Assembly (NCBI GenBank): GCA_964576615.1
Contig: CAZNUU010000001.1
Location: forward strand, 31,309 to 95,308
Source of the DNA: an uncultured Candidatus Saccharibacteria bacterium
Lineage (GTDB): Bacteria > Patescibacteriota > Minisyncoccia > Phycocordibacterales > DATDWN01
Length of the DNA stretch: 64,000 bases
Direction: 5' to 3'
In this document: piece after piece, positions 3,333-39,748 of the stretch
Position numbering within the stretch: the first letter of the stretch is position 1
How the letters are laid out: each line of letters opens with the position of its first letter
Translations under genes and position numbers: made by a program
Notes under the pieces: model-generated
What the model saw: the letters and a program-made list of their open reading frames with translations, nothing else
Told to the model about the DNA's origin: nothing
Databases searched by the model: none

Positions 3333-5948
3333 ATGAAGAAAATCAGAAACACCATCTTGTTTTCTCTGATTTTTACTCCATCTTTAATTTTTGCTTACTC
3401 AAATATCGATGTTGACATCTCCGCACAAGGAGTGATTTCTCCTTTTTCTGTCTCCTGTACTGGCACTAACGCAACAGCGCTCTTGATTAGCAAAGACTAT
3501 CCCTTTTCACATTCTGTGGAGGCATATATGAGACGGCCGTGTATAAATGGTGTCGTGACCTTTGATAGTTTTGATTTAAATAGTTATGTCTTGTATCTGA
3601 CGACTGGAGAGACTTTGCCTCTGACTTATTTCTTTTGGATGCCCCAAAAATTAGTGGTCAAGGATACAACTAATGTTCGAGCTTTTGATGCGCCTCTCTA
3701 CAGAATAGTAATAAATTTATACAGTGATTTTAATAACTTTGACACTATTGTAGAGAGCCCTGATGACATTACGTTTCCGACCCTAGCGGTTAGTCAGGGA
3801 TTTGATTTCGATGGTGTTAGTTGGAAAAAGCATGGGGCACTAGTGGGCAACTCGAGTGTTTTGTTTCTGCCTGGGATTGAATCAAGTAGATTGTACAGAC
3901 AAAAGAGGCCGGATGAGGGAAGCGGTGAATTACGACTATGGGAACCGGGGAATATAATTCCGGGAGGTTTGAGGGATTTATCTTCGCTCATGCTAGATGA
4001 AAATGGTAAAGCAATTCCACCTCTTCTTCCAGAGTACAATGTTTACGCTCGAGATGTAATTGATGAGGCATATGGCACATTTAATATTTACAAATCTTTT
4101 TTGGATAGTTTGGAGAAGTTAAAATCAGTTGATCATTCTATTGCTGATTACTCTGCAGTTCCGTATGACTGGAGGTTTTCTCTTGATGACACCTTAGGGA
4201 ATGGAACTAAAAGCGGCTTAAATATTTCATATCTTTCTCCATCTGTTGATCCTTATATAATTTCGGAGTTGCGTCGTCTTGCATCAGGTTCACAAAATGG
4301 AAAAGTAACAATCATTGCTCATTCAATGGGTGGACTAGTAGCAAAGGCACTTGTGAAAAGACTTCAAGATTCTGGTGACCCACTTCTTTCAAAGATAGAT
4401 AAAATTATTTTTGTGGCAGTCCCTCAGCTCGGTACTCCATCTACTATACCCGCGTTGCTTCATGGCTATGATCAAAGTATTCCGGCCCAATTTGCTTCTT
4501 TTGATCTGAATCCACAAGAAGCAAGGAATTTAGGTCACAATATGCCTTCAGCTTATAACCTTTTGCCTTCGGCAAAGTATTTTGAGTCAATCCAAACTCC
4601 GGTTGTTACATTTGCGTCCGATTTAACTGATTGGGCAAGTAGGTACGGTGCAACTACAACATCTGAAGTTAGCTTGAGAAATTTTCTGGCAGATACGTAT
4701 GGCAGAGTTGCGAGCGATGCCAGTGACACAAACACACCGGATTCATTAAGAAGTAATTTATTAACTCAATCAGAGGGTGCTCATAACTATTTAGACAATT
4801 GGACACCACCAACTGGTTTGAAAGTTATAGAAATTGCAGGGTGGGGGATACCTACGACTATTAGCGGGGTTAGGTATATCAAAGATGGTGGTGGTATTAA
4901 ACCAGAGGCAATAACTACTATTGACGGTGACGGCACAGTAGTTGCGCCGAGCGCACTATATTCAAATGGGGTTGGCGTTGATAGATATTGGATAGATGAG
5001 GGGCTTTGGAACAAAAAACATTCGAGACCGGGTCCTCTTGGCCTTAAGCATAAGGATATACTTGAGATTACGGATTTGATAGGTTTAATTAAGAATACGA
5101 TTAATAATCAATCTCCAAGCAATTCTCAGTATCTATCCACTTCTACTCCTAATAATCCTGGTACTCACCTTGTTTACTCTCTCCACTCCCCACTAACGCT
5201 TGATGCTTATGACAACATAGGTAATCACACAGGTATCTCCACCTCGACTGGTCTGATCGAAGAAAACATCCCGGGTAGTTACTATCTAAAATTTGGAGAT
5301 ATTAAATATATATTTACTGATACAGACTTGCCGATTCATATATTTATGAATGGTTATGCTAATGGTACTTTTACTTTCAATATTGAAGAACTACAAGGAG
5401 ATAGCTATTTATCAAATGTAACATTCAAAGATATTCCAACGACTTCCTCAACTAAAGTTTCAATTGATACTCAAACAGATATAAACTCAGTGTCCCCGAT
5501 GAGAGTTGACCTAAATGGAGACAGTACTATTGATTTCTCGATTGGCCCAAAGATAAACGATACGGTATACGCGCCATACAGATTCGATGGATTTCTCCAA
5601 CCTATAAATGACACAGCTCATCAGACTGGGCAACAATTAAGTGTATTTAAAGCTGGGAGTACAGTACCAGTGAAGTTTCAGATAAAAAAGTGGGATGGAA
5701 CAATAATACAATCCATAAACTCTCCAATATCGCTTACTCCACAAAAAGGAGCTGCAATGTCAGCTTCAATTGATGAGTCAGTCTATGCGGATCAAGGTAC
5801 CACTGGTACTACTTTCAAGTGGGATTCTACAAATCAACAATATATTTATAACTGGAGTACCAAAGGATTAGTCCCTGGATATTGGTATAAAATTTCTGTA
5901 AAATTAGATGATGGGAGTATTTATTCGGTAACTATTGGATTGAAATAA
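3333..5948 (+). CDS. Secreted alpha/beta-hydrolase (lipase/esterase-like, GxSxG) with large C-terminal beta-rich region
   Basis: N-terminal signal peptide (MKKIRNTILFSLIFTPSLIFA). Nucleophile-elbow motif IIAHSMGGLVAKAL. 871 aa. AT-rich backbone composition and no SD. Confidence 0.6.
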   Translation: MKKIRNTILFSLIFTPSLIFAYSNIDVDISAQGVISPFSVSCTGTNATALLISKDYPFSHSVEAYMRRPCINGVVTFDSFDLNSYVLYLTTGETLPLTYFFWMPQKLVVKDTTNVRAFDAPLYRIVINLYSDFNNFDTIVESPDDITFPTLAVSQGFDFDGVSWKKHGALVGNSSVLFLPGIESSRLYRQKRPDEGSGELRLWEPGNIIPGGLRDLSSLMLDENGKAIPPLLPEYNVYARDVIDEAYGTFNIYKSFLDSLEKLKSVDHSIADYSAVPYDWRFSLDDTLGNGTKSGLNISYLSPSVDPYIISELRRLASGSQNGKVTIIAHSMGGLVAKALVKRLQDSGDPLLSKIDKIIFVAVPQLGTPSTIPALLHGYDQSIPAQFASFDLNPQEARNLGHNMPSAYNLLPSAKYFESIQTPVVTFASDLTDWASRYGATTTSEVSLRNFLADTYGRVASDASDTNTPDSLRSNLLTQSEGAHNYLDNWTPPTGLKVIEIAGWGIPTTISGVRYIKDGGGIKPEAITTIDGDGTVVAPSALYSNGVGVDRYWIDEGLWNKKHSRPGPLGLKHKDILEITDLIGLIKNTINNQSPSNSQYLSTSTPNNPGTHLVYSLHSPLTLDAYDNIGNHTGISTSTGLIEENIPGSYYLKFGDIKYIFTDTDLPIHIFMNGYANGTFTFNIEELQGDSYLSNVTFKDIPTTSSTKVSIDTQTDINSVSPMRVDLNGDSTIDFSIGPKINDTVYAPYRFDGFLQPINDTAHQTGQQLSVFKAGSTVPVKFQIKKWDGTIIQSINSPISLTPQKGAAMSASIDESVYADQGTTGTTFKWDSTNQQYIYNWSTKGLVPGYWYKISVKLDDGSIYSVTIGLK

Positions 5949-6394: not shown

Positions 6395-7480
6395 ATGAAC
6401 ATTAAAATATCTGGAAGCGGTAGCTGCATTCCTCCGTTTGTCGTAACAAATAGTGACCTTGAGAAGTTTTACCCACTTGGGCCATATCCTCAATATGGTA
6501 GTCCGTTTGATTGGAGTGCTAAATGGATAGACGAAAAACTTGGGGTTAAGGAACGTCACTTTGTTTTTGATTTAAAAACTCAAAAAATGAACGAGGGTTA
6601 TTATGATCTAGACATGGCTGAGAAGTCTGCCCGAGCTGCATTAGAAAACGCCAAAATAAAGATTGAAGATATTGGAACTATCATTTACGTTTCTTCAACT
6701 CCCGAATTTTTTATGCCTGATCCAGCATGTCTACTCCACTTTCGTCTTGGCGCTAGCCAGGATACATCGGCTTTTAGTTTAACAAGCGCTGGTTGTGGTG
6801 GTTTTATATATGGAATGATAAATGCAATAGGGATTTTAGAATCTGGGATTTCACAACACATACTTCTTGTGGCCTCAAATTCTACAAGTGCCTACATGAC
6901 ACAATACAGCGATCCGCATTTAAGTGAGGCTGAGCTTCTTGCACTAAAGGCCAGAGATCGTCTGAACGCATCTATGTTTGGCGATGGAGCAGGTGCAATG
7001 ATATTAAGCAAATCATCTAAAAAAAATCTTCTGTCTTATTACTGGGGGGCAGATGGTTCTACAAAGGCCGTTGTTTTTGAAGCAGGTGGCTCACGGAATC
7101 CTGCTACAGTCGAGACTGTCAAAGGTGGAAAACATTTTTTTAACATGGATGGAAGACTGGTTAAAGATATTGCTCCGCCAATGTTTGAAATGGCAATTAA
7201 TAGAGGTCTTGAGAAGGCCAAGATGAAGTTTGAAGACATAGATTTCTTTGTTTTTCACCAAGTCAATTACAGACTACTCAAAGGGCTGATCGAAAAGATG
7301 GGTATTCCAGAGGACAAGATTGCTATTCATGTAGATCACTATGGGAATCTGGACACCGCTACACTTGGTGTGGCGTACGATGAATCCAGGAAGGCAAAAA
7401 AAATTAAGGATGGAGACACTGTGATGTTTGCAGCGGTAGGTGCTGGTTGGCAATATGGTTCAGTGATTATAAAAATATGA
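6395..7480 (+). CDS. 3-oxoacyl-ACP synthase III-like condensing enzyme (FabH/KAS III family)
   Basis: Cys in SAGCGGF. His in FHQVNYRL (HQxN). Asn-containing GAGWQYGS tail. 361 aa, the right length for KAS III. Confidence 0.65.
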   Translation: MNIKISGSGSCIPPFVVTNSDLEKFYPLGPYPQYGSPFDWSAKWIDEKLGVKERHFVFDLKTQKMNEGYYDLDMAEKSARAALENAKIKIEDIGTIIYVSSTPEFFMPDPACLLHFRLGASQDTSAFSLTSAGCGGFIYGMINAIGILESGISQHILLVASNSTSAYMTQYSDPHLSEAELLALKARDRLNASMFGDGAGAMILSKSSKKNLLSYYWGADGSTKAVVFEAGGSRNPATVETVKGGKHFFNMDGRLVKDIAPPMFEMAINRGLEKAKMKFEDIDFFVFHQVNYRLLKGLIEKMGIPEDKIAIHVDHYGNLDTATLGVAYDESRKAKKIKDGDTVMFAAVGAGWQYGSVIIKI

Positions 7481-9057
7481 CATACGATATTGAAACAATA
7501 CTGATGTTGGTTACTTTCACCTTCAATGCATTTTTAGGTTCGGTTATTTTTATCCATAGTGAAAGGAAAAAAAGTGACATTGGTTATGTGTTTTTAATAC
7601 TCGCGTTATTATTTTGGACATTTTCTGTTCTCGGAATAAGAGTTAATCATGATTTAAATACTGTATTTTTTTATCTTGCTCTAAGTCATGTCGCAGGCCT
7701 GAGTATCGCGATAAGCTTCTGGTATTTTGTTGAGACTTTCACAGGTCGTGTTGTCTCAGCAGTAAAACTAGTTCTTGCGATAGTTCCTGCTATATTAATA
7801 AGTTATCTAGCTTTCACCTCAAAAAAATTTATTGTAAATATATTGCAGTTGGATAGTTTAAATAAAGATTTGGTAATGGGCCCCTACCATTTCCTTTTTC
7901 TTGCATACTTTAGTGCTGTAATGATATATGCATTTTATTTGCTGTATCTTATATATGGCAAAAAAGAAAATCACACACTGAATTCAGCCGTTCTATATGT
8001 ATTTTGGGGAACATTCATCTCGACTTTAGTTGGAGCCGCGTTTAATATTTTTTACCTGACCCTTAGAGTATCCGACTATATTGCATGGGGTCCAATAGCG
8101 ACCATAATCATGGTGATTTTTATTTCATACGCAATTATGAGGCTCAACCTGATGAGTATCAAATTGATAGCATCCGAGATTTTTGTTATCGCGCTCTTGA
8201 TTACACTATCAATAAAACTTTTTTTCTCAACCACAACTTCTGAATGGGTTGTAAATGGAATAAGTCTAGGCATTAGTTTTGTTGTTAGTTTCTTCCTAAT
8301 TAGAAGTGTAATGAAAGAGATTTTTCAAAGGCAGAGAGCTGAAGGCTTGGCCAGAGATCTAAAGAATGCAAATGAAGGTCAAGCCAATCTCATTCATGTC
8401 ATGAATCACCAAGTTAAGGGTAGGCTTGGAAATGCAAAAAATATTTTTGCGGAACTTTTGACTGATGATTATGGATCGGTACCGGAATCTATGAAGCCAT
8501 ACTTGGAAAAAGGATTGGAAGAAACCAGCAAGGGAGTTGATTATGTCCAAGGAATTCTACGTGGCGCAAGTGCAGAAAGTGGTCAGATGCAGTTTGATAT
8601 GCTGTCCATGAATCTAAAAGACGTAGTTCAGGACTCATTTACCAGGATGAAAGATTATGCCGAAAAGAAAGGTCTCGCGATAACGCTAGATATAAAACCT
8701 GGTGACTATAACATGAAAGGGGATGCAGTCGAACTGGGCGAATCAGTCCGAAACCTGATCGATAACTCTATAAATTACACCGAGACTGGGAGTATAAATC
8801 TAACCCTGTACTCTAAAGACACTGTAAATCTAATAGAGGTTACGGACACTGGTGTGGGTATTAGTTCAGAGGATATGCCAAAGTTATTTAAATCTGGTGG
8901 CAGAGGTACGGATTCCTTGAAAATAAATGTGAACTCAACTGGTTATGGTTTGGCTTTTGTCAAAGGGGTAGTGGAAGCTCACAAGGGTAGGGTTTGGGTT
9001 GAATCAGGAGGTAAAGGAAAAGGTTCGAGTTTCTTTGTAGAAATACCAAAAACCTAG
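7447..9057 (+). CDS. Membrane sensor histidine kinase
   Basis: About 8 N-terminal TM helices. H-box region (LIHVMNHQVKGRL). HATPase_c N/G boxes (DTGVGIS...GYGLAFVKGVVEAHKGRVWVESGGKGKGSSF). Its start overlaps the end of the KAS III gene. Confidence 0.75.
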   Translation: MAIWFSDYKNMTYDIETILMLVTFTFNAFLGSVIFIHSERKKSDIGYVFLILALLFWTFSVLGIRVNHDLNTVFFYLALSHVAGLSIAISFWYFVETFTGRVVSAVKLVLAIVPAILISYLAFTSKKFIVNILQLDSLNKDLVMGPYHFLFLAYFSAVMIYAFYLLYLIYGKKENHTLNSAVLYVFWGTFISTLVGAAFNIFYLTLRVSDYIAWGPIATIIMVIFISYAIMRLNLMSIKLIASEIFVIALLITLSIKLFFSTTTSEWVVNGISLGISFVVSFFLIRSVMKEIFQRQRAEGLARDLKNANEGQANLIHVMNHQVKGRLGNAKNIFAELLTDDYGSVPESMKPYLEKGLEETSKGVDYVQGILRGASAESGQMQFDMLSMNLKDVVQDSFTRMKDYAEKKGLAITLDIKPGDYNMKGDAVELGESVRNLIDNSINYTETGSINLTLYSKDTVNLIEVTDTGVGISSEDMPKLFKSGGRGTDSLKINVNSTGYGLAFVKGVVEAHKGRVWVESGGKGKGSSFFVEIPKT

Positions 9058-9317
9058 AGTAAATTAATTATCTCAACGAATTTCTTTCCGTACGGCGATA
9101 AGGTGTGTTTGTTTTGAGTCCTACTCAAGAGGCCTGAGAGCGCAAGTAGTGTTAAGTGCTCAGAGATACTGTGTAGATCGGTTCCGGTCTTCTCTGAGAT
9201 TTCTTCAAGGGTAATGTTATTTTCCCGATAAACTAGTCTTAAGATTTCTATCCGCCTGTGATGTGCGGCTCCTTTGAAATATCTCTCGAGTTGTTTTGGG
9301 TCTTTAACTAGAACGAA
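9054..9317 (-). pseudogene. ArsR/SmtB-like winged-HTH regulator ORF with no in-frame ATG/GTG/TTG start
   Basis: An 87-codon open frame (FVLVKDPKQLERYFKGAAHHRRIEILRLVYRENNITLEEISEKTGTDLHSISEHLTLLALSGLLSRTQ...) matches the ArsR HTH signature. It is bounded upstream by TAA and contains no canonical start. Its stop overlaps the histidine-kinase stop. Confidence 0.35.
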
Positions 9318-9339
9318 TTAATTTTATCAGGATGTACGA

Positions 9340-9903
9340 TTAAAGTACATATATGAAGAGTCTATTTCCTATCGGATCTTTGGTGCTGAGGCCTAGGTCA
9401 ATTATTTTTTGGGCTGTCATAGATTTTATTTCAAAGTCGCATGAGGCTATTATAGTTTCAGGTCTAAATTTCTCTCTTGATTTTGATAAAAGTCTGTTTA
9501 CTACCTCAGGATATAGAAATAGAAAGATATGAGTTGCATCCCTGAAATCGGTCTTAAAGAAATTTTCTCTGCGAATCTCAATGTTAGGATGTTTCCTAGT
9601 TTTAAATTTCGCTAACCAATAGGGAACTAAAGCAATCTCAATCCCAACCATCTTAACTTCTGGAAATTGTTTGGATGCGGCTAGTAAAACACGACCATCT
9701 CCGCAACCCAGATCGTAAAGCACGCTAGATTTTTTTAGATCCATGTTCTCGACGATTCGTTCCAGAGCGAAATCTGGCACAGGCACAAATGGCGCATCAG
9801 CTGAAAATGCAGCTATGAATTGAGAAATAACAAACAAAACAAAAACTATAGAAAAGAGTACGAATATTAATATGCTGACCAAAAAAAAGAATAAAACCAT
9901 TGG
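9340..9903 (-). CDS. Class I SAM-dependent methyltransferase
   Basis: Motif I VLYDLGCGDGRVLL. N-terminal TM helix. Start taken at the internal Met at 9903 to avoid overlap with the divergent gene. Confidence 0.55.
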   Translation of the reverse strand, partial: PMVLFFFLVSILIFVLFSIVFVLFVISQFIAAFSADAPFVPVPDFALERIVENMDLKKSSVLYDLGCGDGRVLLAASKQFPEVKMVGIEIALVPYWLAKFKTRKHPNIEIRRENFFKTDFRDATHIFLFLYPEVVNRLLSKSREKFRPETIIASCDFEIKSMTAQKIIDLGLSTKDPIGNRLFIYVL

Positions 9904-9925
9904 TAATTTATGATAACATGCAATC

Positions 9926-10606
9926 ATGTCACAGGAGATGGAGTGGGATAGGGAATATAAAAAATCACAGCTTCTAACTAAGGAGAATAAACCGCAAAAT
10001 GATGTGGTTAGGTTTACGGATTTTCTGGAGGAAAATGGGCTAAAGATGGATGGACTCAAGATCTTGGATATTGGTTCTGGTACGGGCCGAAACAGCCTCT
10101 ATTTTGCTCAAAGAGGAGCCAAAGTTTTTGGCATAGAGTTATCTAGAAATGCTTTGGAAATAGCAGAGAAAAATACAAAGGATGCAGGTCTTGAAATCGA
10201 ATATATGAAAGGTAATATCGGGTGGGCTTTTCCATTTGAAGATAACTCGTTTGATATTTTACTGGATGTTACATCATCTAATTCTCTTTCCGAATCCGAA
10301 AGAAATATTTATCTCATCGAGTCTAAACGAGTTTTGAAAGAAGGTGGGTATTTTTTTGTAAAAGCATTGTGTAAAGATGGTGATAAAAATGCGAAGACTT
10401 TACTTAAAGATTCCCCAGGCAAAGAAAAAGATACTTATGTATTACCTGGTCTTAATGTAACGGAAAGAGTTTGGTCCAAAAATGACTTTGTCACAACTTA
10501 CGAAAAATATTTTACAATTTTACATCTAGAAAAGAAAACAAGTTATCCAAGAATGAATGGTCGCTCGTACAAACGAAACTGGTGGATTTGCTATATGAAA
10601 AAGTAA
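9926..10606 (+). CDS. Class I SAM-dependent methyltransferase
   Basis: Motif I ILDIGSGTGRNSLYFA and motif II VFGIELS. 226 aa. Confidence 0.6.
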   Translation: MSQEMEWDREYKKSQLLTKENKPQNDVVRFTDFLEENGLKMDGLKILDIGSGTGRNSLYFAQRGAKVFGIELSRNALEIAEKNTKDAGLEIEYMKGNIGWAFPFEDNSFDILLDVTSSNSLSESERNIYLIESKRVLKEGGYFFVKALCKDGDKNAKTLLKDSPGKEKDTYVLPGLNVTERVWSKNDFVTTYEKYFTILHLEKKTSYPRMNGRSYKRNWWICYMKK

Positions 10607-10653
10607 GACATAAAACTAAGCCCCCGGACCACTATGGATCCGGGGGTTGGTAC

Positions 10654-11922
10654 TCACTTTCCCAAGGTGATTACTGTGCGCGCTCTTTGAGGGGTCATTT
10701 GATCGACGAGATTTGTCAGTTCCTCGTGGGGTATCGTGTCCACGTAGTTCAGATACATCTCGGCGGCAATTGTTTCCCCCGCAAGAACTATTTCAGAGAT
10801 GGCTACGGCCACGCTTCTGGTTGGGCTGGGGATCTGCATGTCGAGGTTGTTGCGCATGCCTGCTCTTACAGTGGCCCACCATTCCCTGGACCTGATTTGG
10901 GGGTCACTTCTTAGCATTTCCAGCAGGGCATTCTCGACCGCAGGGATTTTCTCAGAACTGGTATTGACCTCAAACCCAATGAAACCACCGTCGAGGGAGT
11001 GGAACCTTTCTTGGCTAGCGGTATATGCCAACTGCTTGTTCTCACGTACAGCGCGGTATAGAGGTGAGCCAAGCCCCCCAAACGTGAAGATCTGACCCAG
11101 CAAACCGTACCTCACTAAGTCGGTCCAACTTTTGAGAGCTGGGATCGGGAATACGACTGAGACCTGAGACGGCTCGAAGGAAGATTGAGCAACGAACCTC
11201 TTCTCCTTTGGCCAAGTCAGTTCACCATAAGATGGAGAACTCCTTCTTGGGGTTAGGCTGTTGGAAGGAAGTGACGCCAGAGGCTCGCTTAGAACCTGCA
11301 TGACTTCGTCTCTCTCCAAAGAGGTTGAGACCACGAAGATCATCCTGGATCTGTCATAACCTTTCATCCAGGCATTTCTAAGCACGTCCGGTGTCATCGA
11401 ATCAAGTGAGCTTGTTGTGCCAAGGGTACGATTCCCCAGCACATGCTCAGGAAACAATGATTCCCAGAGGTTGTACGAGTGACACCTCTCCAGACTTCCA
11501 AGAGCTCGCTTGATTTCCTGACCGATGATGTCTCTTTCGGCGACGATACCCTCGTCTGTGAGGAGCGGGCGAGCAACCAAATCAGTTACCAACCTTACTG
11601 CGGTTGGCAAAAATTTGTCGGGGATAGTAGCCCAGAAATTGGTACGAAGGGCGCTTGTGTTCGCGCCTGATTCGCCGCCAAATCTGGCTATTGTACCCTT
11701 TGTGTCAGTGTACCCATTCGGGAAGTTCACTGTTCCCCGGAATGGTGCGTGCTCGAACCAGTGGTAGAGACCTGGCTCTCCGCATGATGTGTCGTCGGCT
11801 GCTCCGACGAGGACTGTGAGTGAAATCCCAGTGCACTTTATGACCGACGGTAGCCGCTCATAAAATATGGGAATGCCATGTGGGCCAACTACTCTTTCAA
11901 ATTCAGTCATCCAAACCTCCAA
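10654..11922 (-). CDS. M16-family zinc metallopeptidase (pitrilysin/insulinase-like). GC-rich cassette.
   Basis: Inverted zinc-binding motif HxxEH (YHWFEHAPFRGT) near the N-terminus. 422 aa. GGAGG 6 nt upstream of the ATG. Hairpin at 10624-10650 followed by a T-tract on the minus strand. Confidence 0.7.
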   Translation of the reverse strand: MEVWMTEFERVVGPHGIPIFYERLPSVIKCTGISLTVLVGAADDTSCGEPGLYHWFEHAPFRGTVNFPNGYTDTKGTIARFGGESGANTSALRTNFWATIPDKFLPTAVRLVTDLVARPLLTDEGIVAERDIIGQEIKRALGSLERCHSYNLWESLFPEHVLGNRTLGTTSSLDSMTPDVLRNAWMKGYDRSRMIFVVSTSLERDEVMQVLSEPLASLPSNSLTPRRSSPSYGELTWPKEKRFVAQSSFEPSQVSVVFPIPALKSWTDLVRYGLLGQIFTFGGLGSPLYRAVRENKQLAYTASQERFHSLDGGFIGFEVNTSSEKIPAVENALLEMLRSDPQIRSREWWATVRAGMRNNLDMQIPSPTRSVAVAISEIVLAGETIAAEMYLNYVDTIPHEELTNLVDQMTPQRARTVITLGK

Positions 11923-12025
11923 AGTTTTGGTGGTGCTGTCTTTTCATACTATAATACGCAATTTTAAGTTAGTCAAATTTGACATATATTGACTTTATTA
12001 TCTTTTTCTGTATTATAAATTAATC

Positions 12026-12157
12026 ATGAAAAACATGATTAATTATCTAAATACTCATGGAAACGGCCGAAAGTGGCTTTGCACTTTTGCTGTCTCACTA
12101 AATCAGACTGCTTCTCCATTTGCAGGAGAAAGATCGCGCAGTGTTTTAATTGTTTGA
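12026..12157 (+). CDS. Candidate 43-aa small ORF (MKNMINYLNTHGNGRKWLCTFAVSLNQTASPFAGERSRSVLIV) in AT-rich spacer. Speculative.
   Basis: A sigma70-like promoter (TTGACT, 16 nt, TATTAT) lies just upstream, so the transcript would be near-leaderless. A palindrome AATCATGaaaaaCATGATT overlaps the start. A strong terminator follows at 12181-12210. No homology recognised. Confidence 0.2.
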   Translation: MKNMINYLNTHGNGRKWLCTFAVSLNQTASPFAGERSRSVLIV

Positions 12158-12180
12158 ATAAGTGACATATTTGAACGCTT

Positions 12181-12210
12181 AAAATGCCGCGTGAATCGCG
12201 GCATTTTTAG
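12181..12210 (+). terminator. Rho-independent terminator between the small ORF and the ABC gene
   Basis: aaaatgccgcg-tgaat-cgcggcatttttag: an 11-bp GC-rich stem followed by a T-tract. Confidence 0.65.
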
Positions 12211-12257
12211 TTCTTTTGTGTTCTTTCACATTCACAAATTCAGAATAGGAGGCGCTC

Positions 12258-14030
12258 TTGGAGAGAGAAAAGAAAAATCCACTCTCTTACCTTTTCGGTA
12301 AGACGTGGAAGTACTCACGGGGCAATCGCAGGAATGTAATTCTGTACATACTCATGCTCATCGCGAGCGAGTGTGTAAACACGTTCTGGTCGCCAGTAGT
12401 TATGGCCAATATCATGAACGTTGTGACGCGTGAGGGTGTAAGGAGGGAGAATTTATCAAAACTTCTTTTCCTGCTCTCACTTCTCATCGTAAGAACAGTC
12501 CTGTCCTGGGGGTTTCATGGCCCAGCTCGAGTAATCGAGCAGCTGAACGCCTTCAGGTCTAGAAGAAACTATTGGCAGTATCTTCTGGAAGGGGTGATGA
12601 ACTTGCCACTTGAGTGGCACACTGAGCATCACTCTGGGGACACCATCGACAAGATGAACAAAGGTACTGGTGCACTCTTTGATTTCTCAGGCGATTCGTT
12701 TGAGATAATCAAGCCTCTTGTTCTCCTTGTCGGCTCGCTTAGCATGATTGTCTACTTTAGCCCGATCTCGGTTGTCATTGTCGCAGTGATGATGGCACTT
12801 GGGGCTTGGGTTACGGTGGCTTTTGATGCAACGCTTGGTCCACAATACAGGCAGCTCAATCGTTTCGACAACAAGATTTCTGAACGCATTTTTGACACGG
12901 TCAGTAATATTTCGACTGTGATAATCTTGCGCGTAGAAAAACTTGTTTTTGAAACAATCATGAGAAAGGTTGATGAACCGTTCGATCTGTTCAAGCGAAA
13001 TGCAATCTTGAACGAATGGAAGTGGTTCTGGACCAGTGTCTGCGCAAATCTCATGGTGGTCTTCGTTCTCGGGTTTTATCTCTACCAGCATCTCGGTACT
13101 TCTGCCGGTGTTCTGGTCGGGAACGTCTATCTTCTCTTGAATTATCTCAACAAAGTTGGGGAACTGTTCTATCAGTTCACCTCACTTTATGGTGGGACGA
13201 TCAGAAGAAAGTATCGTGTCATGAATGCTGAAGAACTCTCGAAAGAGTTTCAGCCTTCTACGTTCGCAAACCACGTATTGCCAAAAGTGTGGAGTGAACT
13301 CTCGATCCGAAACCTCAACTTCTCCTACGGAGGAGGTGAGGGTGATCCACATCTGGATGATGTTTCAACACGGATCCAGCATGGGGAACACATTGCCATC
13401 GTCGGTGGCAGCGGTAGTAGCAAGACGACATTTCTCATGCTAATGAGAGATCTCTATCATCCGCAGAGTCTTACACTCTCTGTTGATAGCGTGGAAATTC
13501 CACATGGGTTCGAAGGTATAAGCAGAGCAATTTCGCTTGTGCCACAGGATCCTGAGATTCTGGCTACGACTATACGAGAGAACATCACGCTCGGCGCCGA
13601 GTACGACGAGAGGTTGGTTCGACACTACACAGACATGGCTTGCTTTACGGATGTGGTCGATAGTTTACCAAAAGGGTTCGACTCATCTGTAAAAGAAAAG
13701 GGGGTCAATCTCTCAGGTGGTCAGGTTCAACGTCTGGCTCTCTCGAGAGGACTCCTGGCTTGTCACGGCAAGGACATTGTCCTTCTCGATGAGCCGACCT
13801 CAAGTCTCGATGTGGTAACTGAGATTACAGTTTACCGGAACATTCTCGTAGCGTTCCGAAACAAAACCGTAATCTCAACGGTGCACAGACTTCAACTTCT
13901 CCCGCTTTTCGATCGTGTTTGCATGTTCGAGAAGGGGAGGATCGTTGGGTCTGGAACTGTTCAGGAACTCTTACTGAGTTGCCCGCAGTTCGAGGCTCTC
14001 TGGAATAGGCAGTTTGTTGATCCAGTGTGA
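12258..14030 (+). CDS. ABC exporter, fused TMD-NBD half-transporter with non-canonical Walker A. GC-rich cassette.
   Basis: Six-TM N-terminal domain. Walker A reads VGGSGSSKTT, with Ser where the conserved Gly of GxxxxGK[ST] sits. Signature LSGGQVQRLALSRGLL. Walker B VLLDEPTSSLD. H-loop TVHRL. AGGAGG sits 6 nt upstream of the TTG start at 12258. Terminator hairpin at 14033-14060. Confidence 0.8.
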   Translation: MEREKKNPLSYLFGKTWKYSRGNRRNVILYILMLIASECVNTFWSPVVMANIMNVVTREGVRRENLSKLLFLLSLLIVRTVLSWGFHGPARVIEQLNAFRSRRNYWQYLLEGVMNLPLEWHTEHHSGDTIDKMNKGTGALFDFSGDSFEIIKPLVLLVGSLSMIVYFSPISVVIVAVMMALGAWVTVAFDATLGPQYRQLNRFDNKISERIFDTVSNISTVIILRVEKLVFETIMRKVDEPFDLFKRNAILNEWKWFWTSVCANLMVVFVLGFYLYQHLGTSAGVLVGNVYLLLNYLNKVGELFYQFTSLYGGTIRRKYRVMNAEELSKEFQPSTFANHVLPKVWSELSIRNLNFSYGGGEGDPHLDDVSTRIQHGEHIAIVGGSGSSKTTFLMLMRDLYHPQSLTLSVDSVEIPHGFEGISRAISLVPQDPEILATTIRENITLGAEYDERLVRHYTDMACFTDVVDSLPKGFDSSVKEKGVNLSGGQVQRLALSRGLLACHGKDIVLLDEPTSSLDVVTEITVYRNILVAFRNKTVISTVHRLQLLPLFDRVCMFEKGRIVGSGTVQELLLSCPQFEALWNRQFVDPV

Positions 14031-14078
14031 ATGTCCGCCCCGCGCCAAAATGGCGCGGGGCAAACTTTAGGAGGAGTT

Positions 14079-14654
14079 ATGGCTGAAAAAGTTGTGTTTC
14101 TCTCGGGCAGGAAAACAAACCTACGTCCCGTGAGTCGTGCAGATATCCCTACACTACTCCGCTGGGTCAATGACCCAGAAGTGCGGGACTTTGTTCTCGG
14201 GACCTTTCCGTGGACGGAGAAGATGGAAGAAGACTGGTTCGACAAACTGGGCAAGGATGAGAGCAAGGTGACTCTGGTGATCGAGACCAAGGAGGGCAAA
14301 GCCATTGGAACGATGGGGATTCACAACATAAACTGGGTCAGCCGCACAGGCACGACTGGGGCGATGATCGGGGAAAAGGATTGTTGGGGGCAGGGTTATG
14401 GCACCGACGCCAAGCTCGTTCTCCTGCAATACGCCTTTGATACCTTGAATCTCTTCCGGATTCGCTCGGACGTGATTGGGTTCAACGATCGTAGCGTGAG
14501 GTACAGTCTGCGCTGCGGTTACAAGGTGGAGGGCACTCGGCCAAAGGATATCTTCAAGAGAGGACAATATTGGGATCGAATCGAACTCGGAGTTTTCCGG
14601 GAAGACTGGTTCCCAATTTGGGAAAAGTATCAGCAAACCGGCAAGGTCCGGTGA
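14079..14654 (+). CDS. GNAT N-acetyltransferase (RimJ/RimL-like). GC-rich cassette.
   Basis: RimL-like layout: WVNDPEVRDF..., acetyl-CoA motif region GQGYGTDA, and YAFDTLNLFRIRSDVIGFNDRSVRYSLRCGYKVEG. AGGAGG 6 nt upstream of the ATG at 14079. Terminator gggctcgc-gaaa-gcgagccc plus TTTCTTT at 14661-14690. Confidence 0.7.
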   Translation: MAEKVVFLSGRKTNLRPVSRADIPTLLRWVNDPEVRDFVLGTFPWTEKMEEDWFDKLGKDESKVTLVIETKEGKAIGTMGIHNINWVSRTGTTGAMIGEKDCWGQGYGTDAKLVLLQYAFDTLNLFRIRSDVIGFNDRSVRYSLRCGYKVEGTRPKDIFKRGQYWDRIELGVFREDWFPIWEKYQQTGKVR

Positions 14655-14716
14655 TTATGAGGGCTCGCGAAAGCGAGCCCTTTCTTTATGAGGATTTATG
14701 TTAAAATTTAAATCTT

Positions 14717-16498
14717 ATGGAAACTATTAGGGAGAAACATACAAATGTTTCAGTTGGACAAATAATTGAAAAATTTTGGCAGAGCACTGGAAGGTATAAG
14801 CCTTGGTTTCTCGTTGCTTTTATCTTCTTTCTACTTGCTCAAGTTGCCACTGTTATAGTACCTATATTTTATAAAAGTTTTTTTGATATTCTCGGAAGTC
14901 ATCCAGACAAAACAGAAGCAGTGAAGAGTTTGATGAGAATAATAGAAATTGTTCTCATTCTGCGACTTACCAACTGGCTTTCCTGGAGAATTGCAATAAA
15001 TATTTATCAAAATATGCAAGCTAGGGTTATGGCTCTTATCAAACAAACTTCTTTTGATTATCTAACGAGCCACTCTTATAGTTTTTTTGCAAATACATTT
15101 GGCGGTAGTCTAGTCCAAAGATTGAATCGTTTCAGTAGAGCGTTTGAAGCGATAACCGACAACATAACTTTTAGTTTACTTCCATTGTTTGTAACAATCA
15201 TTGGTTCAATGATTGCAGTCTATAGGTTTGCACCACTACTCTCTGGGGTATTGGCAATCTGGATAGTAGCATTTGGAGTTTTTAGCGTGTCGTTTTCTCG
15301 TTGGAAGATGAAATATGATTTAATTTCCTCTGAGGCTGATTCGGTAACTACTGGTTATCTTGCAGATGTCATTACTAATAATTCGTCAGTCTCTTTCTTC
15401 ACTGGGCATGAATATGAATCGATCGGATTCAGAGAAGTAACAGATGATCAGACCAAGAAGACATTATATTCATGGAAACTTGGTGATATAACTGATGCAG
15501 TTCAAATGTTCTTACTCATCCTAGTAGAGTTTTTTATCTTTTATTACGCAATTAAATTTTGGTCACAAGGTCTCATAACAGTTGGTACCTTTGTCTTGGT
15601 CCAGACGTATATTATTTCATTGTCGGGTCAGCTCTGGGGTTTGGGTAAAATTGTTAGAAATTTATACCAAAACATAGCCGAATCTAAGGAAATGGTTGAA
15701 ATCCTAGATACGCCGCATGAAATTAGGGATTTACCAGGAGCCAAACCTATTAAAATAGAAAGTGGCCAAATAGAATTCGATAATGTCACTTTTGGTTTTT
15801 CTAAAGACAGCAAGATAATAAATGATTTTAATCTTAAAATTAAGGGTGGAGAAAAAGTGGCGATTGTCGGTCCAAGTGGTTCAGGCAAGACTACTCTCGT
15901 CAGGCTAATTATGCGAGTTTATGATGTAGGCAAAGGTGCGGTAAAGATTGATGGCCAAAATATTAAAGATATTACTCAAAGTAGTTTGCGTGAAAGTATT
16001 AGTTTTGTGCCACAGGATCCGGTGTTATTTCACAGGACGTTAATGGATAATATCCGATACGGTAGGCGACACGCCACCGACCAAGATGTTATTGCAGCTG
16101 CAAAATTAGCCCATTGTGATGAATTTATCGATAAACTCCCCTTAGGTTACCAGACATATGTGGGGGAAAGAGGAATAAAGTTATCAGGAGGTGAGCGTCA
16201 AAGAGTGGCAATTGCAAGAGCAATATTAAAACACGCACCCATACTAATATTTGATGAAGCTACATCTAGTTTGGATTCGTATTCTGAGCATTTGATTCAG
16301 GATGCATTGGAGAATCTTATGAAAAATTGTACTACCATAGTTATAGCGCACAGATTATCAACTATAAAAAAGATGGACAGAATTATTTCAATGAGGGAAG
16401 GTCAGATCGTCGAGGAAGGTACACACGATGAGCTTACAAGTAAGGAATCTGGTCTCTATAAGAAACTTTGGGATCTACAAAGTGGTGGGTTTTTGTAA
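14717..16498 (+). CDS. ABC exporter, fused TMD-NBD half-transporter with canonical motifs (AT-rich, backbone-like)
   Basis: Walker A GPSGSGKTT. Signature LSGGERQRVAIARA. Walker B ILIFDEATSSLD. H-loop IAHRLSTI. No SD. Confidence 0.85.
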   Translation: METIREKHTNVSVGQIIEKFWQSTGRYKPWFLVAFIFFLLAQVATVIVPIFYKSFFDILGSHPDKTEAVKSLMRIIEIVLILRLTNWLSWRIAINIYQNMQARVMALIKQTSFDYLTSHSYSFFANTFGGSLVQRLNRFSRAFEAITDNITFSLLPLFVTIIGSMIAVYRFAPLLSGVLAIWIVAFGVFSVSFSRWKMKYDLISSEADSVTTGYLADVITNNSSVSFFTGHEYESIGFREVTDDQTKKTLYSWKLGDITDAVQMFLLILVEFFIFYYAIKFWSQGLITVGTFVLVQTYIISLSGQLWGLGKIVRNLYQNIAESKEMVEILDTPHEIRDLPGAKPIKIESGQIEFDNVTFGFSKDSKIINDFNLKIKGGEKVAIVGPSGSGKTTLVRLIMRVYDVGKGAVKIDGQNIKDITQSSLRESISFVPQDPVLFHRTLMDNIRYGRRHATDQDVIAAAKLAHCDEFIDKLPLGYQTYVGERGIKLSGGERQRVAIARAILKHAPILIFDEATSSLDSYSEHLIQDALENLMKNCTTIVIAHRLSTIKKMDRIISMREGQIVEEGTHDELTSKESGLYKKLWDLQSGGFL

Positions 16499-16525
16499 AA
16501 ATAGCTAATTTGATAGTATAGATCT

Positions 16526-17476
16526 ATGAAGAAATCACTACTTTCGGGAGTTCAGCCTTCGGGACGACTACATATTGGAAACTATTTTGGAGCACTAAAG
16601 CAGTTCGTTGACATGCAGAACGATTACAATGCTATCTATATGATTGTGGATTACCATGCCCTCAATTCCGTTCAAGATAAAAAAACAATGTCGGATAATA
16701 TTTTGGGTGTGGCGATGGATTATCTAGCGATCGGTCTTGATCCCCAGAAATCAATAATTTTTAAACAATCTGATGTTTCCGAGCACACCGAACTTTGTTG
16801 GATCTTTGACACTATCACCAGTATGTCCTTTTTGGAAAGAGCTCATGCTTACAAGGACGCCGTGGCCAACAATCGGGAGGCAACCGTCGGACTTTTTAAT
16901 TACCCAATGTTAATGGCGGCAGATATTTTACTTTACGATATTGATGTAGTACCAGTTGGGCAGGACCAAAAACAACATATTGAGTACACGAGGGACACTG
17001 CTCAGAAGTTCAATAACGTTTTCAAAAAGGAAGTTTTCAAATTACCCGATGCAAAGATAATGCCAGAAGTAGCAGTTGTGCCAGGAACAGATGGCAGAAA
17101 AATGTCCAAGAGCTATGGCAACACCATTCCGCTTTTTGCGACAGATGATGAAATAGAAAAAGCTGTGATGTCTATTGTCACGGACTCGAGTGGTGATAGA
17201 CCCGAGAATGTTTACGCAATACATAGACTTTTGAAATCAGAAGAGGAACTCTCATCCTTGTACGAAGAAAATAATGGCAAGTATAAAGTTCTAAAAGAAT
17301 CACTTATTGAAGATTTGAAAAAATTTATCGGACCAATGAGGGAAAAAAGAGAACAATTGGCTGCAGATCCAGATTTTGTACTAGATGTCTTACGTGAGGG
17401 TGGCAAGCGAGCGAAAGTTAAAGCTGAAAAGAAAATGGAGGATGTGAGAGATGCAGTTGGGGTTAAGTTGTACTAA
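16526..17476 (+). CDS. trpS: Tryptophanyl-tRNA synthetase
   Basis: Class I HIGH-type motif (PSGRLHIGNYFGA) and KMSKS (GRKMSKSYGNTIPL). 316 aa, the right length for TrpRS. Confidence 0.75.
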   Translation: MKKSLLSGVQPSGRLHIGNYFGALKQFVDMQNDYNAIYMIVDYHALNSVQDKKTMSDNILGVAMDYLAIGLDPQKSIIFKQSDVSEHTELCWIFDTITSMSFLERAHAYKDAVANNREATVGLFNYPMLMAADILLYDIDVVPVGQDQKQHIEYTRDTAQKFNNVFKKEVFKLPDAKIMPEVAVVPGTDGRKMSKSYGNTIPLFATDDEIEKAVMSIVTDSSGDRPENVYAIHRLLKSEEELSSLYEENNGKYKVLKESLIEDLKKFIGPMREKREQLAADPDFVLDVLREGGKRAKVKAEKKMEDVRDAVGVKLY

Positions 17477-32189: not shown

Positions 32190-32201
32190 GATAATTTAAA
32201 T

Positions 32202-32399
32202 ATGAAAAGAAATGAAGGCTTTATCCTAAAGATAGTCCTGATTATTGTTGCCCTAGTTTTGCTTAAATATTTCCTCCACTTTGATGTCATTGAATACCTA
32301 AAGACTCCTCAAGCTCAAAAAGTCATCGGTCCTATCTGGACAGCAATAAAAGCTTTTTATAATTGGTTAGATACTTTGGTTCGAGGCTGGGTCACCTAA
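32202..32399 (+). CDS. Small membrane protein (65 aa)
   Basis: Single TM helix. AT-rich. Confidence 0.35.
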   Translation: MKRNEGFILKIVLIIVALVLLKYFLHFDVIEYLKTPQAQKVIGPIWTAIKAFYNWLDTLVRGWVT

Positions 32400-32865
32400 T
32401 TTACCTATCAAGGTTTATGGGGCAGGGGGACTTCCCTATTGGGGAATAGTTTTTTTGAGATAGATTTGACCTTGAGTTGGGAGTAGATTGTGCGATATTT
32501 TTATGTTGCACAATCTACGATATCTTTTGCTACGTAGCACCCACGCATTAGTTATGGGCGAGTAGTTGTTTTACAAATTTCATATAAATGAGTTAATAAG
32601 CTTCCTTATCCTAGGTGCTATGGGCAAAAGATATATTGTGCGACACAGCCCTAAGCTATCCCCTAAGCATCTAGAGTATATAGGTCAGGCTTTATTTAAA
32701 AATAAATATGCATTAAAATTATATGACCCGAAGTAAGGAGACTGGCCAACCATACTTCCTCCCTAACAAGAGTTTACGGGATGGCCAACCGCAGGTTTCA
32801 GATAATTGGTGTGCGCACCCAATGATTCTGATGCAATCCCTGCGGTTTTGATTATTTAGTTCCAT

Positions 32866-37953: not shown

Positions 37954-39033
37954 CTAAATCCCCTCACTTTTTAAACTGTCGATAATCTTTTTGGCTTCTT
38001 TTGATAGTTTCTTGGGAATAAGTATGTTTAGCCTAATTAGCAAATCACCCCGATGACTTTTCTCTAGGGGGACTCCCTTGCCTTTAACCCTTAGTGTCTC
38101 CCCAATTGACACTCCTTCCGGAATTTTCACACTAATTTTCCCATCTAAAGTCTCGATAGTTCTCTCTGCTCCCAGGAGGGCCTCTGTAAGCTTTACTCCA
38201 AGTTCCATTACCAGATTACTGCCTTCCTTTCGCATAAATGGGTGCTTCTTTACATAAACTCTTACATATAGATCACCTGGCTGACCACCTGGAACTGCTT
38301 CACCCACTCCTGAAAGTCTCATCATCTCGCCATTTTCTATGCCTGGCGGTATTTTAATTTTTATGGCGGATTCTTTTTTTAATACTCCCCTGCCGTGACA
38401 AGTATGGCACTTAACTTTCGGAATTTTGCCTGAGCCCATACAAGTCTCACAGGTAGTTGTAGTTTCAAATTGCCCAAAAAAAGTCTTCTTAACTTCTCGC
38501 AATGTTCCCTTGCCATTACAAGTAGTACAGGTAACAGTCTCAGTTCCTGGCTCAGCTCCAGAGCCAGCACATGTGTCACATTTGGAGACTTTATTAAGAA
38601 GCACCTCTCTTTCTGTGCCAAAAATCGACTCCTCAAACGAAAGTTCTATGTCAATTGAAATATCTCGCCCACGCTTTGCCTCTTTTCTCCTGCCTCCACT
38701 AAAAACATCCGAAAAAATATCACCAAAATCAAATTCAAAACCTTGGCCATTACCTTGGGTAAATTGAGAAAAATCAAATCCTCCAAAACCATTCCCGAAG
38801 CCGGAGTTACCAGCCCCACCGCCAAAGGTTCGACCATAGGAGTCGTATTCTGCACGTTTTTTATCATCAGAGAGTACTGAATATGCCTCGTTTATTTCCT
38901 TAAATTTCTCTGCATCACCTGATTTTTTGTCTGGATGATATTTATGAGCCAAATTTCTGAAAGCTTTTTTTATTTCATCCTTGGGAGCCTTTTTGTCTAC
39001 GCCCAGTATTTGATAGTAGTCCTTGCCTGACAT
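37954..39033 (-). CDS. dnaJ: Chaperone DnaJ
   Basis: J-domain with HPD (KDYYQILGVDKKAPKDEIKKAFRNLAHKYHPDK). G/F region. Four CxxCxGxG zinc-finger repeats. Confidence 0.9.
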   Translation of the reverse strand: MSGKDYYQILGVDKKAPKDEIKKAFRNLAHKYHPDKKSGDAEKFKEINEAYSVLSDDKKRAEYDSYGRTFGGGAGNSGFGNGFGGFDFSQFTQGNGQGFEFDFGDIFSDVFSGGRRKEAKRGRDISIDIELSFEESIFGTEREVLLNKVSKCDTCAGSGAEPGTETVTCTTCNGKGTLREVKKTFFGQFETTTTCETCMGSGKIPKVKCHTCHGRGVLKKESAIKIKIPPGIENGEMMRLSGVGEAVPGGQPGDLYVRVYVKKHPFMRKEGSNLVMELGVKLTEALLGAERTIETLDGKISVKIPEGVSIGETLRVKGKGVPLEKSHRGDLLIRLNILIPKKLSKEAKKIIDSLKSEGI

Positions 39034-39114: not shown

Positions 39115-39339
39115 ATGGGTGAGAGCATCTCAGAGTGGGGCGACCGAATGCAGGCAGTCTGGGCAGGCTTACCGGGTTTCGAGAGACGAGCAATTCTCTT
39201 TCGGGCGGCAGTGAGAAACCATCACTGGTTACCCGAAGAAATCTCAGAAATGGCCATGCCATGGTCACTCGTCGATCTCACGGTGAAGCTGGGTGAGCGA
39301 TTCAGCGGCGTCGTATACGAAGCGCTTGCTGGGAAGTAA
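39115..39339 (+). CDS. Hypothetical small protein P1 (GC-rich 4-gene cassette)
   Basis: AGGAGG 6 nt upstream of the ATG at 39115. GC-rich. No recognisable motif. Confidence 0.35.
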   Translation: MGESISEWGDRMQAVWAGLPGFERRAILFRAAVRNHHWLPEEISEMAMPWSLVDLTVKLGERFSGVVYEALAGK

Positions 39340-39411
39340 CCGAGAGCAGCCGGGTGGGCAACCACTCGGCTGAATTGTTTTTGTATGATAAAGTTCACCT
39401 GGAGGGACGAG

Positions 39412-39687: not shown

Positions 39688-39748
39688 CTACCGGCAGGAG
39701 ACCCTCGCCGGTTTCCTGTTTCTGAGGTATTGTTTGGATGGAGGCTTT

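Follow-up and report, generated by a model that had tools for sequence, protein, structure and literature searches.

The region analyzed here lies in a stretch of 64,000 nt from an uncultured Candidatus Saccharibacteria bacterium (contig CAZNUU010000001.1, positions 31,309 to 95,308), which we call the window and whose own coordinates we use throughout. Our subject is the AT-rich spacer (11911–12257; G+C content, GC, 0.346) between a gene for an M16 zinc peptidase and a gene for an ABC exporter, ABC1, and in particular the leader that this spacer places in front of ABC1: a promoter-like element, a 43-codon open reading frame (ORF) and a terminator. ABC1 is followed by an acetyltransferase gene, GNAT, and by a second exporter gene, ABC2. 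The M16 gene with its HxxEH site, both exporters, GNAT and the contents of the spacer all lie at or near the positions given by the sequence-only reading, an earlier interpretation of the letters made without database searches, and the GC contrast on which that reading drew is real (M16 0.519, ABC1 0.475 and GNAT 0.530 versus 0.369 in ABC2 and 0.35–0.41 in the flanks). It had proposed these genes as a candidate peptide processing, modification and export module, with the small ORF as its precursor. In the spacer we found a conserved ORF, two mutually exclusive and covarying RNA structures, a stop codon in a constant position within one of them, and a linkage to ABC1 and GNAT, features that point to a candidate transcription attenuator.

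The promoter-like site of the leader (TTGACT-16-TATTAT; 11989–12016, forward strand) has a −10 box that ends 9 nt 5' of the ATG of the 43-codon ORF (12026–12157, forward strand; MKNMINYLNTHGNGRKWLCTFAVSLNQTASPFAGERSRSVLIV, then the stop codon). A homologous ORF is open in all nine aligned loci: frame 1 has no internal stop in 9/9 loci despite many insertions and deletions, frames 2 and 3 contain 28 and 21 stops, and the probability of an open frame in shuffled sequences is 0.04–0.19 per sequence. In eight of the nine loci the best −35/−10 pair ends 8–10 nt before the start codon, and we see no Shine-Dalgarno sequence; the transcript is therefore probably leaderless or near-leaderless. Leaderless mRNAs may be common in the source genome, to judge from the promoters of trpS in the window (16499–16528), which has a −10-like box 3–7 nt 5' of its ATG and no Shine-Dalgarno sequence, and of trpS at the related locus L012. 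A perfect palindrome, AATTAATCATG-N5-CATGATTAATT, extends across the predicted transcription start and the leader ATG (12018–12044); it is present as a 7-bp version in L005 and as just CATG...CATG at the other loci, and could be an operator or a 5' hairpin.

The peptides encoded by the leader at 11 loci are 31–45 aa long and cationic, commonly contain Trp and have no signal peptide. They begin with M-x-N-[MV]-[RI]-x-x-x-N, in which N9 is kept in 10 of the 11, share a central motif G-x-x-[WR]-L-x-x-F-x-V, and end with L-R-x-V-L-x-I directly before the stop. They contain neither a double-glycine motif nor a Cys/Ser/Thr-rich core and match no Pfam family. A protein search with the peptide alignment returned four matches, three of which were query sequences, and the leader ORFs are almost never annotated, although the homologue at L016 is listed as a Paceibacterota hypothetical protein.

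The end of the ORF takes part in a long hairpin, the predicted antiterminator (12135–12193, forward strand), whose 5' strand (12135–12158) consists of the last eight leader codons and the stop TGA (12155–12157), and whose 3' strand (12170–12193) includes the 5' arm of the intrinsic terminator. The latter, AAAATGCCGCG-tgaat-CGCGGCATTTT with a U-rich tail (12181–12216, forward strand; an 11-bp GC-rich stem and T-run at 12181–12207), is thus mutually exclusive with the antiterminator. In a MAFFT alignment of nine sequences the antiterminator has 21 pairs that are 93.7% paired, 10 of them changed on both sides; for the terminator, pairing is 89.8% and two pairs are compensatory. In 500 column shuffles the antiterminator was not matched in any of five measures, slid controls were 27–52% paired, and RNAalifold predicted the same hairpin. 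The two structures have similar folding energies, which in the individual sequences range from −15 to −24.5 kcal/mol for the antiterminator and from −17 to −20 kcal/mol for the terminator, and the leader stop codon always falls within the apical helix of the antiterminator. A covariance model built from the nine sequences found nothing else in 693 kb of loci or in the rest of the window, and recovered L094, which was fetched later and is not in the model, at the expected place (77 bits, E 5e-17). The leader therefore combines a conserved ORF, an intrinsic terminator and an antiterminator that overlaps the ORF and shares a strand with the terminator, as leader-peptide attenuators do.

Two further hairpins, both inside the ORF, precede the antiterminator. 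P1 (12060–12096, forward strand) appears in single-sequence folds and has a conserved GGCC-N6-GGCU core in the alignment, and P2 (CUUCUCC/GGAGAAG; 12112–12130, forward strand), just 5' of the antiterminator, is predicted independently in most loci with different sequences (L014 UCUGCCG/CGGCAGA, L012 CUUCUGC/GCAGAG, L094 CUGUCC/GGACAG), is absent in L091 and is possibly a pause hairpin. Directly 3' of the terminator stem are two copies of the motif GTTCTTT (12210–12226, forward strand). The TTCTTT within them (12211–12216 and 12221–12226) is conserved in one or two copies at every leader locus and matches TTNTTT, the NusG-dependent pause motif of Bacillus subtilis (PMC9963633, PMC8060035), a resemblance that we offer as a lead only. 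A pattern scan of viral contigs for the terminator and the GTTCTTT motif gave 0 matches.

A leader this structured (folding z-score −4.4, with P1, P2 and the antiterminator) raises the question of whether it might work as a riboswitch-like element that binds a ligand or a protein independently of translation, the ORF being incidental or secondary. The missing Shine-Dalgarno sequence would agree with this, and the conserved GTTCTTT repeats could bind a factor. Yet the frame stays open at all loci through many indels while the other frames are rich in stops, the distance from the −10 box to the start codon is fixed, and the stop codon keeps its place in the apical helix. Furthermore, P1 and P2 are poorly conserved in sequence across loci and P2 is missing in L091, which leaves no conserved ligand pocket, and Rfam 15 has no gathering-threshold match in 11800–12400, the only match at gathering score in the window being one tRNA; the best match on the leader in a search at E ≤ 10 was Phe_leader, on the wrong strand and at 22.7 versus 55 bits. 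We regard a translation-independent switch as quite unlikely. At L013 (3740–4000), an ABC1 orthologue (57% identity) is preceded by a 37-codon ORF unrelated in sequence, the 3' part of which, ATCGCGGC, resembles the 3' strand of a hairpin further downstream, GCCGCGGAT...ATCCGCGGC; its architecture is the same as that of the leader switch, and the covariance model did not detect it.

We compared six related contigs, the window included, that have in common the region from a 7TM histidine kinase to trpS-aspS-scpA. The gene order in the window is KAS, histidine kinase, MT186 (reverse strand), MT226, M16 (reverse strand), leader, ABC1, GNAT, ABC2, trpS, aspS and scpA. L005 (ABC1 71% identical) has histidine kinase, MT186 (reverse strand), MT226, leader, ABC1 and GNAT; L091 (63%) has KAS, histidine kinase, a 203-aa gene, leader and ABC1; the P0022 contig (64%) has a 43-aa gene, ABC1, trpS, aspS, scpA, SET and scpB; and L012 (57%) has MT226, leader, ABC1 and trpS. 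L092 reads histidine kinase, NUDIX, MT226, a 142-aa gene, leader, GNAT, M16 (reverse strand) and trpS. The leader and ABC1 thus occur together in 5/6 loci, GNAT in 3/6, M16 in 2/6 and ABC2 in 1/6, and by synteny ABC1 with its leader is the resident backbone and ABC2 the window-specific extra, the reverse of the earlier assignment of ABC1 to an island and ABC2 to the backbone. The region from the histidine kinase to trpS (7447–16525), seen together with L005, L012, L091 and L092, is a variable slot among close relatives, in which methyltransferases, NUDIX, M16, GNAT, ABC1 and ABC2 are gained and lost.

The association of leader and exporter extends beyond these contigs. A promoter, small ORF and hairpin lie upstream of ABC1 in L005, L006, L007, L011, L012, L014, L016 and L091, and the full layout of promoter, small ORF, hairpin, T-run and GTTCTTT precedes every ABC1 orthologue of at least 54% identity for which DNA was available. 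In more distant Paceibacterota (L006, L007–L010, L011, L014, L016 and L094) ABC1 stands by itself behind the same leader. A metagenome scan with the ABC1 alignment mostly hit generic motifs of the nucleotide-binding domain, about 10 of 80 loci being true orthologues. L092 has no ABC1; there a diverged version of the switch immediately precedes the GNAT orthologue, with a promoter 9 nt before the ATG, a 32-codon ORF ending in YVSLI, an antiterminator whose outer helix has changed to GCUGG.UGC/GCC.UCAGC, a terminator and CGTTCTTT. Given this position of the switch, the acetyltransferase would answer the same signal as the exporter.

These comparisons bear on a further alternative, in which the ORF encodes an exported functional peptide such as a leaderless bacteriocin or a signal, ABC1 serves this peptide alone as exporter or immunity pump, and transcription of the exporter is reduced by the terminator relative to that of the peptide. 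What is conserved at a minimum is indeed the pair of ORF and ABC1, also where ABC1 has no other companion, the cationic, often Trp-containing peptides without signal peptide would suit such a role, and N-terminal residues are kept through synonymous changes (Arg5 is encoded by CGC, CGT or AGA). However, a terminator that sets stoichiometry requires no antiterminator, yet a covarying one of 21 bp is present and includes the stop codon. The peptide also diverges fast, with 48% identity between the window and L005 compared to 71–76% for ABC1, GNAT and MT226, it lacks a Pfam family, and at L092 the ORF and switch precede a cytoplasmic acetyltransferase and no exporter. Additionally, the best-conserved segment of the peptide is the one constrained by RNA pairing with the terminator arm, a pattern that suggests a regulatory leader and not a precursor. 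We hold an exported peptide to be quite improbable. The proposal that the spacer has the precursor-then-attenuator layout of bacteriocin operons is borne out in its second half, as the ORF is conserved and the terminator is part of a putative attenuator, and is unsupported in its first, as the ORF does not look like a precursor.

We instead favor, with a probability of about 0.62, the interpretation that the spacer is a ribosome-mediated transcription attenuator of ABC1 and GNAT that is induced when translation falters. Transcription would begin a few bases 5' of the leader ATG, and the last eight codons with the stop would pair as the 5' strand of the antiterminator, the 3' strand of which holds the 5' arm of the terminator. 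A ribosome close behind RNA polymerase would, on reaching the distal part of the ORF, melt the antiterminator, so that the terminator would form and transcription would stop before ABC1 (OFF). Were there no ribosome, or one that lagged behind or stalled within the first third of the ORF, the antiterminator would be the first to form and transcription would read through into ABC1 and GNAT (ON). In agreement with this scheme, when a 30-nt ribosome footprint was placed at each codon of the window leader and the remainder folded in an equilibrium model that ignores kinetics, the antiterminator was favored when the ribosome was absent or its P-site lay at codons 1–10, and the terminator from codon 27 to the stop. 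The likeliest triggers would be antibiotics that target the ribosome or a shortage of charged tRNA, and the products of ABC1 and GNAT would export the offending compound, acetylate it, or both; the joint induction of an efflux pump and an acetyltransferase when translation falters would fit a detoxification response.

Several points weigh against this interpretation. The footprint folding is ambiguous at codons 11–26, where antiterminator and terminator have almost equal energies. We infer that the ORF is translated and that termination takes place, and likewise which way the switch works, what induces it and what the substrates are. The signal in particular is a guess, as ABC1 has no specific similarity to BmrC/BmrD and GNAT falls below every equivalog cut-off. 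Without a Shine-Dalgarno sequence, translation of the ORF would depend on the proposed leaderless start, and the conservation of the peptide largely coincides with the RNA pairing, so that a purely RNA-based switch is conceivable. The approximately 11 leader instances all belong to one clade (ABC1 identity of at least 54%), and ABC1 relatives at 45% identity or less lack the leader. Finally, the Walker A motif of the window ABC1 reads GGSGSSKTT, with Ser at residue 388 (13419–13421) where 24/24 aligned orthologues have Gly before the Lys, and this Gly388Ser change, unique to the window ABC1, may impair ATP binding or activity. On the Logan contig L003 the encoded protein is 100% identical over 585 aligned residues.

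The same attenuator could also sense the shortage of one specific charged tRNA and not antibiotics generally, a candidate being Asn-tRNA(Asn) made through the non-discriminating aspartyl-tRNA synthetase (AspRS) whose gene lies 3.7 kb downstream. In the 11 peptides, 20.7% of residues 2–12 are Asn, versus 4.3% in the proteins of the window (Asp, 1.4% versus 5.8%), N9 is all but invariant, and predicted stalls at codons 1–10 favor the antiterminator. Moreover, NCBIfam assigns aspS to the non-discriminating, Asp-tRNA(Asn) type, and in the closest genomes the unit sits just upstream of trpS-aspS. On the other hand, the Asn codons are spaced and not tandem, an A-rich 5' end with Asn and Lys codons is expected anyway for an unstructured leaderless start, distant loci have no aminoacyl-tRNA synthetase gene nearby, and starvation for an amino acid would not be expected to call for an exporter and an acetyltransferase. 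At L012, moreover, a separate terminator follows ABC1 and trpS has a promoter to itself. We consider sensing of this particular tRNA unlikely. We also considered the attenuator as a regulator of trpS and aspS themselves, a candidate that is weakened by the terminator and promoter between ABC1 and trpS at L012 (5771–5857), where trpS has a −10-like box close to its ATG.

It is similarly doubtful, and in our estimate unlikely too, that the leader peptide acts as a sequence-specific nascent-chain sensor, either as an arrest peptide or as a sensor of Asn codons linked to AspRS and GatCAB, or that it serves ABC1 as a monitoring substrate or cargo. If it did, this would be the first description of a lineage-specific cis-regulatory sensor in the candidate phyla radiation (CPR; Paceibacterota/Minisyncoccota), and would give direct evidence of leaderless, transcription-coupled control of translation in ultra-small cells.

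The genes that the attenuator would control are an ABCB/MsbA-type half-transporter and an acetyltransferase. ABC1 (12258–14030, forward strand; 590 aa) starts with TTG, 5 nt downstream of AGGAGG, and matches ABC_membrane and ABC_tran in Pfam and no C39 peptidase domain; the bacteriocin ABC model TIGR01193 scores 159.6 bits against a cut-off of 523.85 bits. It has thousands of homologues at 55–63% identity, and those with a source name come from metagenome-assembled genomes of "Candidatus Paceibacterota", a phylum now listed by NCBI as Minisyncoccota. The names at 57–61% identity, together with that of the L016 leader peptide, indicate that the window most likely comes from a CPR genome. ABC1 was also considered as part of a GC island, and this was rejected: its orthologues are 4–11 GC points above the flanking 3 kb in L005, L091, L016 and L012 and GC-richer than their surroundings in most genomes examined, so the GC contrast is a trait of the family and does not mark ABC1 as an island.

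GNAT (14079–14654, forward strand; 191 aa) starts 48 nt 3' of ABC1, at the same distance as in L005 and with a start that gives it the length of its L005 orthologue, and matches Acetyltransf_3 in Pfam at 90.1 bits against a gathering score of 25.4. It remains below the NCBIfam equivalog cut-offs (PseH, 61.8 versus 93.1 bits; SpeG, 54.4 versus 218 bits), and among solved structures SpeG comes nearest (52 bits), AAC(6') scoring 37 bits. The suggestion that GNAT resembles MccE or RimL and detoxifies a microcin C-like compound found no specific similarity behind it, as the structures of neither were among the PDB matches at E ≤ 1e-3, and it stands as speculation only. Given that a terminator-like hairpin after GNAT (14659–14690, hairpin 14659–14682, forward strand) is conserved in L005 with changes in loop and stem, the transcription unit consists of leader, ABC1 and GNAT.

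Beyond this hairpin lies ABC2 (14717–16498, forward strand; 593 aa), a second half-transporter with ABC_membrane, ABC_tran and canonical motifs. In L012, on the P0022 contig and in L092 the interval from ABC1 or GNAT to trpS has no ABC2, which by this comparison is outside the conserved unit, a lineage-specific insertion particular to the window. A heterodimer of ABC1 and ABC2 was rejected, because orthologues of ABC1 stand alone, ABC2 occurs in the window only, and the two, 23% identical, are separated by a terminator. The Walker A change in ABC1 might be related to the presence of ABC2.

The M16 gene, finally, occupies 10654–11910 on the reverse strand; its ORF extends to 11922, and the real start is the ATG at 11910, behind GGAGG, as in the database twin P0001. 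The 418-aa product matches Peptidase_M16 and M16_C in Pfam and has the features of an M16B metallopeptidase: an intact zinc site (HWFEH; H50-W-F-E53-H54), Glu132 at the canonical distance, both domains and a size near 420 aa. Among solved structures it comes nearest to MPP-beta and to 3HDI, a processing protease of Bacillus halodurans, and the PqqF model of NCBIfam scores 35.6 bits against a cut-off of 320. The family is rare, with 17 homologues found and a best non-self match of 48% (L001), and a search of genome contigs with the protein gave a single spurious match of 32 residues in a Blastocatellia metagenome-assembled genome. A promoter-like site for M16 (TTGACT-17-TATAGT; 11948–11976, reverse strand), a consensus match only, stands back to back with that of the leader, and the two −35 boxes together make the palindrome GTCAAATTTGAC (11972–11983).

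It was this peptidase, paired with the exporter as in loci for ribosomally synthesized and post-translationally modified peptides, that had suggested a module in which M16, the ABC exporter or exporters and GNAT process, modify and export a 43-aa precursor, the terminator setting the ratio of precursor to machinery. All of the components are present together, the HxxEH site is intact, M16 and the GNAT orthologue are neighbors again in L092, which is weak evidence, and on the P0005 contig M16 adjoins a 593-aa ABC gene. Conservation tells otherwise. M16 is absent at every other locus with a small ORF and ABC1 (L005, L006, L007, L011, L012, L014, L016, L091, L094 and the P0022 contig), and it is never co-oriented with the unit, being divergent from the leader in the window and convergent with GNAT in L092, at a different position. 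The copies of M16 in the window and L092 are 41% identical, compared to 65–67% for their common neighbors, which points to separate histories. An all-against-all comparison of the neighbors of its homologues at L001, L002 and L093 found nothing in common with the window except a distant histidine kinase at L093. As had been noted from the letters alone, no core-modifying enzyme (radical SAM, YcaO, LanM and others) was found by Pfam and NCBIfam among the neighbors at 3.3–20.5 kb, which are methyltransferases, a histidine kinase, KAS III, aminoacyl-tRNA synthetases and ScpA, nor was a C39 domain or a double-glycine leader. On synteny M16 is not linked to the leader-ABC1-GNAT unit and is a separate, lineage-specific, GC-rich insertion. 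Of the proposed module, then, the single unit of ABC1 and GNAT stands and the peptidase drops out, and we find the module as a whole highly improbable. The likeness to subtilosin clusters (the M16 pair AlbE/AlbF and the ABC proteins AlbC/AlbD) and to PqqF lies in having M16, ABC genes and a small ORF within 6 kb; unlike those clusters, the window has no radical-SAM or other core enzyme, its single M16 is neither co-transcribed nor co-conserved, and its ABC genes are full half-transporters and not an AlbC/AlbD-type pair.

The closest parallel to the attenuator is bmrB-bmrCD of B. subtilis, the leader ORF and genes of a multidrug ABC exporter, in which read-through is induced by lincomycin, erythromycin and chloramphenicol and reduced when the leader is translated faster (PMC4191407). 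Both systems have a small ORF upstream of an exporter of type IV (ABCB-like), an intrinsic terminator and an alternative antiterminator, and in both efficient translation would lead to termination and slowed translation to read-through, which for the window is proposed from folding. The likeness drawn here is one of architecture and logic. BmrB has 53 aa, a 5' untranslated region of about 70 nt and a terminator inside the ORF, whereas the window ORF is near-leaderless by prediction and ends inside the apex of the antiterminator, with the terminator downstream. Furthermore, BmrCD is a heterodimer and ABC1 a single gene, solitary in most genomes (its orthologues are single genes in L006, L007, L012 and L094), GNAT would be co-regulated in the window, and the host belongs to a CPR lineage and not to Bacillus.

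As in the leaders of trpL, hisL, pheL and pyrBI, the position of a ribosome on a short ORF would decide between antiterminator and terminator. Unlike in trpL, hisL and pheL, there are no tandem regulatory codons in the window leader, and unlike in classical attenuators no anti-antiterminator (1:2) pairing was detected and the untranslated state is predicted to be ON and not super-attenuated. The leaders of erm and cat, and that of vmlR, for which a related regulation with NusG-dependent pausing has been described (PMC9226507), similarly have a short upstream ORF and a terminator or sequestering hairpin and are induced when ribosomes stall, the last of which is proposed here, and antibiotic-responsive attenuators with upstream ORFs share the TTNTTT-type pause motif near the switch. 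Those leaders are unrelated in sequence to the one in the window and control ABCF ribosome-protection proteins, methylases or chloramphenicol acetyltransferase, not an exporter and a GNAT, and drug dependence in the window is a deduction of ours.

The pairing of the two outputs has a counterpart in the blt-bltD operon of B. subtilis, where an efflux pump and a spermidine acetyltransferase are encoded together, Blt being an MFS pump under the MerR-type regulator BltR. Here too an exporter gene is followed by that of a SpeG-like GNAT in one transcription unit, with a putative attenuator instead of BltR and a GNAT that reaches 54 bits against the SpeG cut-off of 218. For Patescibacteria or CPR, full-text literature searches turned up no attenuator or leader peptide. 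The class of mechanism is well known, an attenuated ABC exporter included, and what is new is this element, which has no Rfam match.

Elsewhere in the window, the product of a GC-rich gene (0.555) at 1189–1914 on the reverse strand contains a TonB_C domain (74 bits), surprising in a lineage thought to lack an outer membrane; this is probably one more acquired gene. At 3333–5948 on the forward strand lies a gene for an 871-aa protein with a C-terminal PxKF ("rightmost") domain (NCBIfam NF038114, 104 bits). The cumulative GC skew reaches its maximum at about 32190–32865, where gene orientation switches from forward to reverse, which looks like a replication terminus or a simple strand-bias boundary. 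Two tandem 150-aa ORFs with a GC of about 0.50 and no Pfam match (39222–40140, reverse strand) sit between dnaJ (37954–39033) and a 633-aa ORF (40277–42178) presumed by its position to be dnaK.

CPR bacteria have tiny genomes, and to our knowledge few regulatory elements are known in them. By synteny, the apparent peptide natural product cluster described here is a variable insertion slot around a putatively regulated exporter, and may serve as a cautionary case. Our results also name a concrete candidate for a stress-induced unit of efflux and acetylation, the substrates of which are open to testing. If the leader works as we propose, CPR bacteria would use the coupling of transcription and translation, probably with leaderless initiation, to control a widely conserved ABC exporter.

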